From the IMG/VR virus record IMGVR_UViG_2880372215_000004: DNA of 64,000 bases. One strand, given 5' to 3'. The DNA is from a virus (taxonomy: Duplodnaviria > Heunggongvirae > Uroviricota > Caudoviricetes). The notes under the pieces are model-generated. The model was not told where the DNA came from. It was given only the letters and a program-made list of their open reading frames with translations, and ran no database searches. Below are positions 13,518 to 17,017 of this stretch, piece after piece. Position 1 is the stretch's first letter. Every line of letters begins with the position of its first letter. Both the position numbers and the translations under genes were made by a program.

Positions 13518-14669
13518 ATGAATGTAATAGATTTGTTTTCTGGCGTTGGAGGTCTAAGTCTTGGTGCTGCACGTGCTGGATTTGATGTTAAAATGGCAGT
13601 TGAAATTGATCAACATGCTATTAATACTCACGCAATTAATTTTCCAAGAAGTTTGCACGTCCAAGAAGATGTTTCTTTACTAAATGCAGAAATAATTAAG
13701 GGTTTTTTTAAAAACGATATGCCCATAGATGGTATTATTGGCGGTCCTCCGTGCCAAGGATTTAGTTCAATAGGCAAGGGGAATCCTGATGATAGCAGGA
13801 ATCAGCTTTACATGCATTTCTACCGTTTAGTATCAGAATTACAGCCATTATTCTTTTTGGCAGAAAATGTTCCAGGTATTATGCAAGAGAAATATTCTGG
13901 CATTAGAAATAAAGCATTTAATTTGGTTAGCGGTGATTATGATATTCTTGATCCCATCAAGGTAAAAGCATCTGATTATGGTGCTCCAACTATTCGAACT
14001 AGATATTTTTTTATCGGTGTAAAAAAATCATTGAAGCTTGATATTTCAGATGAAGTATTTATGCCTAAAATGATTGATCCGGTTACTGTAAAAGATGCTT
14101 TGTATGGATTACCAGATATTATCGATGCCAATTGGCAATCAGACTCTGAGAGTTGGCGAACAATTAAAAAAGATCGAAAAGGGGGATTTTATGAAAAATT
14201 ATGGGGGCAGATCCCTCGGAATGTTGGTGATACAGAATCGATCGCTAAGTTAAAAAATAATATCATATCTGGATGTACCGGAACATTACATAGCAAAATC
14301 GTCCAAGAGCGTTATGCTTCCTTATCTTTTGGGGAAACTGATAAAATTTCAAGATCTACAAGATTAGATCCAAATGGTTTTTGCCCGACTTTAAGGGCGG
14401 GAACCGCTAGAGATAAAGGAAGCTTTCAAGCCGTCAGGCCGATCCACCCTTATCATCCAAGAGTGATTACACCAAGAGAAGCTGCTAGATTACAAGGCTT
14501 CCCTGATTGGTTTCGCTTTCATGTAACTAAATGGCATAGTTTCAGACAAATAGGAAATAGCGTGTCACCAATAGTTGCTGAATATATATTAAAGGGGCTG
14601 TACAATTTATTAAATAAAAGAGTACAGCCCGAATATTTAAACCATAATTCTTTGGAAGTTAGGGTATAA
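13518..14669 (+). CDS. DNA (cytosine-5) methyltransferase, 383 aa
   Basis: Motifs DLFSGVGG (I), GGPPCQGFS (IV), ENVPG (VI), RTRYF (VIII), QIGNSV (X); low-GC gene. Confidence 0.9.
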   Translation: MNVIDLFSGVGGLSLGAARAGFDVKMAVEIDQHAINTHAINFPRSLHVQEDVSLLNAEIIKGFFKNDMPIDGIIGGPPCQGFSSIGKGNPDDSRNQLYMHFYRLVSELQPLFFLAENVPGIMQEKYSGIRNKAFNLVSGDYDILDPIKVKASDYGAPTIRTRYFFIGVKKSLKLDISDEVFMPKMIDPVTVKDALYGLPDIIDANWQSDSESWRTIKKDRKGGFYEKLWGQIPRNVGDTESIAKLKNNIISGCTGTLHSKIVQERYASLSFGETDKISRSTRLDPNGFCPTLRAGTARDKGSFQAVRPIHPYHPRVITPREAARLQGFPDWFRFHVTKWHSFRQIGNSVSPIVAEYILKGLYNLLNKRVQPEYLNHNSLEVRV

Positions 14670-15626
14670 CCTATAGTATTTATAATAGTTATCCCGTTCA
14701 TTTTCGTTTAAAGAGAACTCTTCAGCGGCTGCCTGATATGCTTCTTTATCAGGCAGTTTACTATCTAAATTTATCTTTTCTTTAATTGTTAGTGTTGGTA
14801 TTGCTATTTCTTGCACGTCTTCCCAATTTGTTGAATAAAATTGCCAGTTAGAAAGGTCGCATGCCTTAGATAACTCTATATATTCTTGTTCTGAGGAGAA
14901 AAAACCTGATATTGTCAACATGGTATGACTGCCATCATTATATTGATTTAAGGATAATGGGTAATACTGAATCTTATCCTTACGTCCTGAAAGACCACGT
15001 TCTATTGCTGATCTAAAAGCGTTTGTAATAATTCGTATTAAAAGAGCTTTAATCTTACGATCTGAAAGATCTGCATTTGATATCTGAAGATTAAAATCAA
15101 GATACTTTTTCCCAAGCAATGATTTTAATGAATTAATAAAAGCTTCTTTAAAAATATCTAAACTTTCTCCAACTCTACGTTGGTAATAAGAACTAGGATT
15201 TATGGGGAAGGTGACCTTCAAAATATCAAAAGAGCTTACTTTAGTACTTAGTAAGTGTATATCATCTAGATCCGTTTGTATTTTTTTCGGGGAGGCATAG
15301 TCTAACCATGTTATTGATGGTTTAGAAAAACTATAATCAAGAATAAAGTCATGAGCTGATATTAGCTTACAATCAATACAATTATAAGGCAAATTATATT
15401 TTTGTCTGATGTGAGTAGACTCTTGTTCTTCGAGAGAAATCATATCAGAAAGAGCGATACGATTATGCATGATTCTAAAATCTTCAAGCATCGGACCACC
15501 AAAACCTATATATGTATATTCTTGAATATTTAGTCTTTTGCTTAAGAGGTTTAGGCTTTCGAGAAAAATCTCTCTATCAATAGACTTATTATGCCTTAAG
15601 TGATAGGGAATGTATTGTCCAGACAT
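14637..15626 (-). CDS. unknown 329-aa protein, second gene of the ATPase operon; candidate effector or specificity partner
   Basis: ORF 14637..15629; ATG shares one nucleotide with upstream TGA (TGATG); GAGGTG Shine-Dalgarno; 3' end overlaps MTase by 33 nt. Confidence 0.7.
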   Translation of the reverse strand: MSGQYIPYHLRHNKSIDREIFLESLNLLSKRLNIQEYTYIGFGGPMLEDFRIMHNRIALSDMISLEEQESTHIRQKYNLPYNCIDCKLISAHDFILDYSFSKPSITWLDYASPKKIQTDLDDIHLLSTKVSSFDILKVTFPINPSSYYQRRVGESLDIFKEAFINSLKSLLGKKYLDFNLQISNADLSDRKIKALLIRIITNAFRSAIERGLSGRKDKIQYYPLSLNQYNDGSHTMLTISGFFSSEQEYIELSKACDLSNWQFYSTNWEDVQEIAIPTLTIKEKINLDSKLPDKEAYQAAAEEFSLNENERDNYYKYYRLYPNFQRIMV

Positions 15627-17017
15627 CACTTCACCTCTTCAATCACCGTATCAAAGCATTGCATCCCCACATCAGAAGCGCTAGCATCTTCATGTCCAAA
15701 GAAATATTTAGATAAAATTTTAACATCTTCTTTCTCTCTGGTGAAGATTATTCGTACAGTAGAGCTTTTTTTTACTGGGGTAGGCAGCTTAGGTGTATAT
15801 CGCCACTCATTTTTGTTTCTATTAGGGTTGGACCAGTTATTTTTTTTATCTTCTGGAGTTGATTGTGGGGTAATTTCAAATAAAGATTGAGCTTCATGTG
15901 ACTGAGCTGACTTAAGTAATTTTTTCCCTTCTTCAAGATGCTCACCTTTCCACTGATTGGTGAATCGAATAAAATGCATCATCCCTTCAATCATTTTATT
16001 TCGTACATCATTGTACAATGTAGAACTAAGATCGACACCTCGTTTCGTTGTTGTTATTGGTAATTTTTCTGGGTTTTTACTGGTAAAGCGAACAACCCCA
16101 GAAATTGCTATAAATTGGGTATGAAACCTTGGTACATTAGCAAAGCCCCAACCTGTGAGATGTGTCTTATCACAATATAGAACAACGCGGTCATTGCAAA
16201 TGACAGTCCATCCAGCATCATCAGAACTCCTTTTTTCTAAAACATCATCATTGTCATCTTCTAAATTTTTATAGAAGCCAACAACTAAATCGATATCAAC
16301 ATCGTCTATTTTAGCTTTATATATGTATGGTTCTATTTTAGAATGATCAGTTATGATGTTAATCGGATTATGTTCAACAACAACTCCATTTAATTCTATT
16401 TTAAATCCTTTTTGAATAATAAATGACAATGAGTGTTTTATCTGTAAAAAGAGATCAGTAAGATATGTGCTCTCATTAAATTTTTGTGCCACATTAGAAT
16501 GGAGTTTTTTTATCTCTATAGTTGTGCCTGTTGGATTTTTGTTATCATAGTCACTCTCGTGCATCGGTATTTTCCAACCATCACCATCGATCCAATCAGG
16601 TGTTATATCTACAGTGAATGCGCCATCGGGATTATTCGATTGTATTGAGCAATCTCTACCCATTTTAAAAATGGCTCTTTTCATACCAATACCATAGACG
16701 CCAACGGTGCCTTCATTTTCTTCTTCTTTTTGATGGGGTCGTCCCATTTTAAAAGCATATTCTCGGAAGCTTTTAGGGATACCTCCGCAATTGTCTTCTA
16801 TAATAAAGACATCTTTATTAATCGTAAGTTTCGCATAAAATCCTTCATATGGTTTTGAAGTTTTTTTTGTGTCTTTTATTGTACGTAAAGCCCCATCGAC
16901 GCAGTTATCAAGCAGATCAAGTATGGCATCGTTTAAGTCGATATCTCGAGTTAGCATACTTACAAAAAATCTTTTACTAGGACTAAAGTCTGCTGTTGGA
17001 GTCGTGTTCTCAGTCAT
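15626..17017 (-). CDS. GHKL-superfamily (MutL/MORC/Hsp90-like) ATPase domain protein, 463 aa
   Basis: N-terminal Bergerat-fold boxes LLDNCVDGA, EDNCGGIP, GTVGVYGIGMKRA; low GC. Confidence 0.75.
   Translation of the reverse strand: MTENTTPTADFSPSKRFFVSMLTRDIDLNDAILDLLDNCVDGALRTIKDTKKTSKPYEGFYAKLTINKDVFIIEDNCGGIPKSFREYAFKMGRPHQKEEENEGTVGVYGIGMKRAIFKMGRDCSIQSNNPDGAFTVDITPDWIDGDGWKIPMHESDYDNKNPTGTTIEIKKLHSNVAQKFNESTYLTDLFLQIKHSLSFIIQKGFKIELNGVVVEHNPINIITDHSKIEPYIYKAKIDDVDIDLVVGFYKNLEDDNDDVLEKRSSDDAGWTVICNDRVVLYCDKTHLTGWGFANVPRFHTQFIAISGVVRFTSKNPEKLPITTTKRGVDLSSTLYNDVRNKMIEGMMHFIRFTNQWKGEHLEEGKKLLKSAQSHEAQSLFEITPQSTPEDKKNNWSNPNRNKNEWRYTPKLPTPVKKSSTVRIIFTREKEDVKILSKYFFGHEDASASDVGMQCFDTVIEEVK

Follow-up and report, generated by a model that had tools for sequence, protein, structure and literature searches.

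The 64,000-nucleotide viral stretch IMGVR_UViG_2880372215_000004, called the window here in its full length, is a Rac/CP-933R-type lambdoid prophage integrated at ttcA. Within it lie three genes that an earlier note, made from the letters alone, had singled out as a candidate defence system: a C5 DNA cytosine methyltransferase (MTase) gene on one strand and, on the other, a gene for a GHKL ATPase followed by one for a 329-residue protein. The three reading frames lie where that note had placed them (Table 1), and its description of the module as low in GC also holds. That is, the GC profile gives 33–39% over 13–17 kb, against 44–46% in the adjacent kilobases and 45–59% further out. The length of the open reading frames (ORFs) in such AT-rich DNA, together with thousands of homologues for each, rules out chance ORFs. 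The MTase gene and the gene for the 329-residue protein are convergent and overlap by 33 nt. The two minus-strand genes form the proposed operon with a 1-nt overlap, in which the ATG of the 329-residue ORF and the ATPase stop codon share one base (GTGAAGTGATGTCT); the program-made ORF list begins this ORF one codon earlier, at GTG.

Table 1. Features of the three-gene module and its surroundings (positions are those of the window; ".", no strand)
Feature	Position	Strand	Basis and remarks
Low-GC variable prophage slot, with the module as its cargo (moron)	13090..17468	.	GC profile; homology to sister prophages
Sigma-70-like promoter candidate, TTAAAA-18-TATAAT, extended -10 TG	13456..13485	+	33 nt 5′ of the MTase ATG; consensus scan
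C5 DNA cytosine methyltransferase, 383 aa; proposed self-marking component	13518..14669	+	PF00145; co-oriented with the prophage early-right genes
Hairpin GGGCTGTAC...GTACAGCCC, 9-bp stem; candidate terminator of the minus-strand operon	14595..14630	.	Inverted repeat I16
PF20553 (Methyltransf_35) protein, 329 aa; proposed effector/recognition subunit	14637..15626	-	Pfam match
MORC/MutL-type GHKL+S5 ATPase, 463 aa, translationally coupled to PF20553	15626..17017	-	HATPase_c_3; fold search
Sigma-70-like promoter candidate, TTGACT-16-TAAAAT	17070..17097	-	About 50 nt 5′ of the GHKL ATG; consensus scan

The 383-residue protein is a bona fide C5 DNA cytosine MTase. It matches the Pfam DNA_methylase profile (E=2.6e-61, 208 bits against a cut-off of 22) and the PADLOC MTase_II profile (E=2e-98), and the motifs FSGVGG, GGPPCQGFS (with C79 as the catalytic Cys), ENV and QIGNSV are present, as the earlier note had listed them. 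Its sequence is identical to that of the structural-genomics entry PDB 3G7U, for which a literature search found no paper. Every orthologue name is generic and so gives no target specificity. The MTases linked to the ATPase pair form a single orthologous lineage with a median pairwise identity of 49%; their target recognition domain is about 39% identical, which suggests that they recognize a related or shared target.

The 463-residue protein is a GHKL+S5 ATPase of the MORC/MutL type with a selected ATP site, and not a kinase. Residues 28–132 match HATPase_c_3 (Pfam E=2.9e-9, 37.5 bits against a cut-off of 25), and all of the Bergerat motifs, recognized earlier by eye, are in place. Among 135 sequences, the motifs D34xxDN38xxD41G, D75N76xG78G79, G106xY108G109xG111xK113R114 and G164T165 are 93–100% conserved, with T165 at 80%. 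A MutL-like segment, CNDRxVxYxD, is essentially invariant in the same set, as is K325 in "TTTKRG", a candidate for the S5 lysine. About 330 residues beyond the ATP-binding boxes had been left unassigned. By fold search most of these form a MORC/MutL-type S5/transducer domain, that is, an S5-fold domain supplying a conserved basic residue; only the last ~130 residues, which are helical, are still unmatched. The C-terminal 134 residues have no Pfam match and the whole protein has no PADLOC match. The best structural matches are MORC3, MORC2 and SMCHD1, and the family profile run against PDB sequences gave marginal matches to MORC3 and MORC4 only (E≈0.04–0.1). The family is large, with more than 5,400 matches, about 45% identical over the full length across phyla.

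The 329-residue protein had been described as lacking any recognizable motif. This does not hold: it matches PF20553 (Methyltransf_35, "putative O-methyltransferase") over its full length (E=2e-89). The protein has the seven-stranded Rossmann-like fold of the class I S-adenosylmethionine (SAM) methyltransferases, into which a helical subdomain is inserted, and is extended at its C terminus. In 117 PF20553 sequences the SAM pocket is conserved at G43 (97%), E/D66 (100%), D109 (99%) and Y/F110 (99%); the motif W107-x-D109-(Y/F)110 is conserved, as are Y8, R18, R74 and E283. Judged from these pocket residues, PF20553 has a selected SAM site and is probably an active SAM enzyme. The "O-" of its Pfam name is an unverified label. 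The nearest folds are the N- and C-methylating RNA MTases RsmD, Trm1 and RlmI/RlmO, and not O-methyltransferases specifically. A sequence relationship to RsmD was rejected (hhalign probability 0.2%, with an approximate RsmD query sequence), and the PF20553 profile gave spurious matches only against PDB sequences. The family comprises about 2,100 cluster representatives. No fusions were seen in the top 150, all of which are stand-alone proteins of ~300–380 aa, plus a few shorter fragments.

That the three genes belong together as one module was put forward in the earlier note, and linkage across bacterial and viral loci bears it out: the trio is a conserved, co-inherited unit. A scan of ~100,000 species genomes, one genome per species, found at least 362 loci, and the counts that follow come from the best 80. 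These include Proteobacteria, Cyanobacteria, Firmicutes, Chloroflexi, Planctomycetes, Nitrospirae, several candidate phyla and one methanogen. PF20553 lies immediately 3′ of the ATPase gene in 77 of the 80, in at least 15 phyla, mostly with overlaps of 1–4 nt (typically 4 nt). A C5 MTase is present at 66 of the 80 loci overall and at 65 of the 68 non-cyanobacterial ones, two of the three exceptions lying at contig ends. It also accompanies 69 of 70 PF20553-containing viral loci on IMG/VR contigs. In the reverse direction, searches from MTase orthologues in other genera found the pair in three of four. Where a full-length MTase gene is immediately adjacent (59 triads), the layout is MTase→ATPase→PF20553 in 30, ATPase→PF20553 convergent with the MTase, as in the window, in 24 (usual overlap 16–19 nt), and ATPase→PF20553→MTase in five. 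Co-variation between the ATPase and PF20553 gives a partial correlation of 0.54. Median identities of 44% for the ATPase and 30% for PF20553 lie below that of the MTase.

As a separate observation, three syntenic loci of Leptolyngbya/Phormidesmis-type cyanobacteria (L040, L071 and L088 in our locus numbering) encode a GHKL protein but have no PF20553 to partner it. Directly after the GHKL gene, L040 and L088 have a C5 MTase of 432–446 aa; L088 also has a convergent UvrD-like helicase, and L040 a 272-aa protein without a Pfam match that recurs in L086 and L087.

The conserved linkage and the fold search together effectively refute a reading of the two proteins as a sensor histidine kinase or signalling pair with no role in defence, placed by chance beside an unrelated MTase; a non-defence sensor kinase was among the outcomes that, by the earlier note, would refute its view. 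A weak match to the NCBIfam DpiB ATP-binding domain (E=0.0033, 16 bits against a cut-off of 656) speaks for such a kinase. A DHp phospho-acceptor domain with a cognate response regulator was not found, and the ATPase is instead of the MORC/MutL GHKL+S5 type.

The prophage setting of the trio is as follows. The window's prophage genes include intR, xisR, ralR, recET, kilR, sieB, ydaT and replication genes, and then DUF1367, DUF1364, DUF1133, tRNAs and lysis genes. The slot that holds the module lies between small ORFs on the DUF977 side and the DUF1367 gene. More than 1,300 genomes have the downstream DUF1367/DUF1364 genes. Homology ends ~50 bp 5′ of DUF1367, and that to sister prophages resumes at ~17468; it follows that a variable slot holds the module as its cargo. 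The validated anti-phage system IetAS (IteA/IteS) or hokD occupies the same slot in sister prophages. The slot, 13090..17468, is a moron/defence hotspot. A sub-threshold Rfam match to the sok antitoxin RNA lies 5′ of the MTase gene, at 13208–13332 (+) (50.2 bits against a gathering score of 59, E=3.7e-9); since sister prophages have hokD in the slot, it looks like a hok/sok remnant beside the inserted module. A megablast against the phage collection gave no match.

In E. coli, the identical module is found in 172–173 of 5,426 complete genomes, mostly O157:H7, O111 and O103 Shiga toxin-producing E. coli (STEC), always in single copy and chromosomal. The pattern is all-or-none, with 172 genomes carrying all three genes. 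The sole MTase-less genome, that of O157:H7 F6294 (NZ_CP038372.1, our L092), has one ~1.7-kb deletion, equivalent to ~13500–15260 of the window, which takes the MTase gene and, with it, the part of the PF20553 gene that encodes the C-terminal two thirds; the GHKL gene is untouched. Such a co-deletion, seen in this one genome, is what one would expect were PF20553 activity harmful when no MTase is present.

Beyond E. coli, the proposed defence and mobile setting is found again in Pseudomonas filamentous (Pf) phages and on a plasmid. A 13.6-kb Pf phage carries ATPase→PF20553→MTase within its moron region. In a study of the phage PfAC20, the authors' own PADLOC run returned only an "incomplete" RM cytosine methylase (PMC11878078), an independent demonstration that the pair goes unrecognized. 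On the Microvirga terrae plasmid pR24_2 (NZ_CP102847.1, 88.7–106.7 kb, L169), the genes of the trio and of Vsr alternate with those of a complete class 1 DISARM system. They form one co-directional operon, in the order HTH, C5 MTase, Vsr, DrmD, DrmMI, ATPase, PF20553, DrmA, DrmB and DrmC. The C5 MTase of pR24_2 is not orthologous to the window-type enzyme (24% identity). Thus, the pair is tied to C5 methylation generally and not to one enzyme.

A sister architecture bears on the role of PF20553. Here, a C5 MTase of the same lineage stands with a single GHKL+S5 protein of 570–650 aa and no PF20553. It is found in Acinetobacter (L171, 6124–8076), in a second Serratia operon (L006, 9672–11498) and on three viral contigs (L163, L164 and L166); in Serratia one MTase is flanked by both architectures. 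The N-terminal 340 residues of the long GHKL protein are homologous to the window ATPase (hhalign 99.9%), and the one from Acinetobacter contains a long linker of QQGQQD repeats. Similarity to PD-Lambda-5_A lies in the extra C-terminal domain, which matches the C-terminal half of that profile with E down to 1.7e-16. No Pfam identity was found for this domain, and the notion that it is a fused PF20553 was rejected (hhalign probability 0.1%). PD-λ-5, a validated system, emerged from an experimental selection and was presented as a compact "RM+Abi" system of prophages (PMC9519451). The swap of PF20553 for a PD-λ-5_A-like domain suggests that PF20553 occupies the effector position.

Apart from the trio itself, the sole recurrent neighbour is Vsr, which is present at 28 of the 80 loci and absent from about two thirds, the window's included. 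Linked Vsr points to genuine, long-term deposition of 5-methylcytosine (5mC). Vsr is stimulated by E. coli MutL, and the trio could be a device for managing 5mC damage, in which the MutL-like ATPase and PF20553, with Vsr, would aid T:G mismatch repair at MTase-methylated sites that have deaminated. The MutL-like GHKL+S5 architecture, with CNDR as an FxN-x-R-like motif, and the Vsr linkage fit this idea. The many loci without Vsr do not; the role of PF20553 is left unexplained, and neither the hotspot position nor the DISARM embedding nor the PD-λ-5_A-like replacement is predicted by it. We consider it very unlikely.

A further reading is an epigenetic module that benefits the phage or mobile element and is not host defence. 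With its C5 and PF20553 methyltransferases the element might shield or control its own DNA, and the ATPase would serve as regulator or loader. The carriers include prophages, a filamentous phage and plasmids, orphan MTases are common in phages, the SAM site of PF20553 is intact, and the window's MTase is co-oriented with the lytic early operon. The pair, however, is antisense to that operon, most instances lie in chromosomal, non-phage contexts, linked Vsr implies long-term methylation of the host genome, and the DISARM embedding and the domain replacement point to defence. Such an epigenetic module is quite unlikely, in our estimate.

The proposal that we favour, with a probability of about 0.6, is that the trio is a methylation-gated defence system of restriction–modification (R-M) logic, directed against phages or other foreign DNA and carried as a prophage moron. 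Several findings weigh against it. No nuclease domain was found in the ATPase or PF20553 by Pfam, PADLOC, NCBIfam, PHROGs or fold search. At about 10 cyanobacterial loci the pair stands with no MTase close by; within ~8 kb of the pair there is none at L011, L013, L019, L022, L026, L027, L041 and L060 (cyanobacteria) or at L079. PF20553 and the MTase show no co-variation beyond shared history (partial correlation 0.09), a value that would be expected under constant specificity but is uninformative. In the 135 ATPase sequences an invariant Asp (D34) takes the place of the Glu that usually serves as catalytic base, so ATP hydrolysis by the GHKL protein may be slow. Finally, the F6294 deletion happened once and could be coincidental.

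The earlier note had cast the ATPase and its partner as the restriction or effector arm and the MTase as the self-protection arm. The logic of a self-protecting MTase with an effector pair fits the all-or-none pattern in E. coli; a "restriction arm" that cuts DNA is unproven, with no nuclease detected. The GHKL protein and PF20553 might still make up a true endonuclease of a conventional ATP-dependent R-M system, with a cryptic site in the C-terminal ~130 residues of the ATPase, in the C-terminal extension of PF20553, or composite between them. The gene linkage is R-M-like, including the convergent 3′ overlap with the MTase, and PF20553 diverges fast, as restriction enzymes do. In addition, these C-terminal regions carry no family assignment, and paraMORC GHKL families are predicted, in a 2008 comparative-genomic study, to act with nucleases in R-M systems (PMC2292703). 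On the other hand, neither protein shows a nuclease motif or fold. The conserved C-terminal residues of the ATPase (W356, K357, L411, P412, G451 and F455) include no acidic or histidine cluster, and the PF20553 invariants map to a methyltransferase active site. Clustering and PADLOC/Pfam scans of the flanking ORFs found Vsr as the only recurrent stand-alone nuclease; the other neighbours are a mixture of housekeeping, mobile-element and scattered known defence genes. A cryptic nuclease is thus unlikely.

For the methylation-gated defence system we propose the following course of events. The C5 MTase would mark resident DNA, its activity on the genome being suggested by the frequent linkage of Vsr. 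The GHKL+S5 protein would act as an ATP-driven dimerizing clamp or switch, as its MORC/MutL-like family suggests, and is predicted to form a complex with PF20553, given their translational coupling and co-variation. PF20553 would be the SAM-binding recognition and effector subunit, and the complex would engage DNA that lacks protective 5mC. The invader would then be stopped without a canonical nuclease. The route that we favour is a SAM-dependent nucleic-acid modification by PF20553, licensed by the ATPase. In an alternative route, unmethylated DNA would be entrapped or silenced in an ATP-dependent manner; PF20553 may read the unmethylated site while the clamp entraps the DNA. Restriction of this nuclease-free kind, in which a MORC-like clamp loads or licenses a SAM-dependent, methyltransferase-fold effector on DNA without 5mC, leading to a toxic or blocking modification or to entrapment or silencing, is a tentative proposal that we hold with much less confidence than the defence role itself.

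The transcription signals of the module are candidates. The hairpin directly follows the PF20553 stop codon and falls in the last part of the MTase coding sequence. It could serve as terminator of the minus-strand operon, and could perhaps influence convergent transcription. The promoter and terminator scans did not rise above chance, and promoter consensus sites were no more numerous than in shuffled sequence.

Elsewhere in the prophage, two tRNA genes lie 3′ of the DUF1133 (Q-like) gene, at 19097–19169 and 19273–19346 (+), annotated as tRNA-Ile and tRNA-Arg in the identical RefSeq locus. Between these and the lysis cassette is further prophage cargo, a TerB-family protein (19447–19950, +) and a 617-aa SASA-family carbohydrate esterase (20525–22378, +). 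At the far end of the prophage and its junction, the segment 47000–53000 has further low-GC stretches (32–43%), which may likewise be cargo gained by horizontal transfer.

Should the trio prove to be a defence system, it would be both compact and widespread, with O157:H7 and O111 STEC prophages and Pseudomonas Pf phages among its carriers. It also marks a blind spot in annotation, as PADLOC sees merely an "orphan" or "incomplete" methylase and misses the pair. The module would offer a tractable E. coli model for nuclease-less, methylation-gated phage arrest, a question that is also open for BREX and DISARM, and a crystal structure already exists for its MTase. It would likewise be a model for the bacterial ancestry of the MORC ATPases that act with DNA methylation in eukaryotes. 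Were the nuclease-free proposal true, the trio would be a prokaryotic prototype of eukaryotic MORC/DNA-methylation silencing.

How does the trio compare with known systems? The earlier note could not match it to any characterized system, and this still stands: PADLOC does not recognize the ATPase/PF20553 pair, and our literature search found no description of the trio, of PF20553 or of these proteins. By the tests run, the pair falls outside Mza, DISARM, Shedu/paraMORC3 and PD-λ-5. Mza (MzaABCDE) also has a MutL/GHKL-type ATPase in a defence operon; membership of the window pair was tried and rejected. The C-terminal DUF4263 PD-(D/E)xK nuclease of Shedu type I-D/paraMORC3 was not found in the window ATPase. 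DISARM (class 1) is alike in being a methylation-based self/non-self system whose mechanism is not reducible to a simple restriction enzyme, but DrmA (helicase), DrmB (DUF1998), DrmC (PLD) and DrmD are absent from the window locus. The DrmMII-type PADLOC matches of the window MTase were rejected as generic C5-MTase similarity. PD-λ-5 resembles the trio in being compact, prophage-borne and of the RM+Abi type with a methyltransferase (PMC9519451). In contrast, the window GHKL protein and PF20553 have no PADLOC match to PD-Lambda-5_A or _B, and the relation runs via the sister architecture only.

Type II R-M systems with a C5 MTase and Vsr are alike in the linkage of the MTase, tight and often convergent, to the other arm, in Vsr, and in their sporadic, mobile distribution. 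The tight, conserved linkage to a second arm is present in the trio. No cognate restriction endonuclease with a recognizable nuclease fold was found at the window locus, where the non-MTase arm is instead an ATPase with a second methyltransferase-fold protein. The closest precedent is the 2008 comparative-genomic study cited above, which placed MutL/MORC-like GHKL ATPases with cytosine methylases and Vsr in R-M-like systems (PMC2292703). The paraMORC/MORC families share with the window ATPase an N-terminal GHKL domain plus S5, linkage to cytosine methylases and Vsr, and lateral mobility; the MORC family sensu stricto is defined by a GhXhhpXXRhl motif in the S5 domain. The partners given there are SF2 helicases and RE-fold, HNH, TIR or unknown C-terminal nucleases, and the part of the paper considered here mentions no methyltransferase-fold partner like the window's PF20553. 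None of these families is known to have been characterized experimentally in this configuration. By inspection, no paraMORC2 ExxxH motif is seen around the conserved H299 of the window ATPase. Methylation-based defence with a paraMORC-type ATPase is, then, already a known idea; the methyltransferase-fold partner sets the trio apart, and its effector mechanism has a real chance of being new in category.

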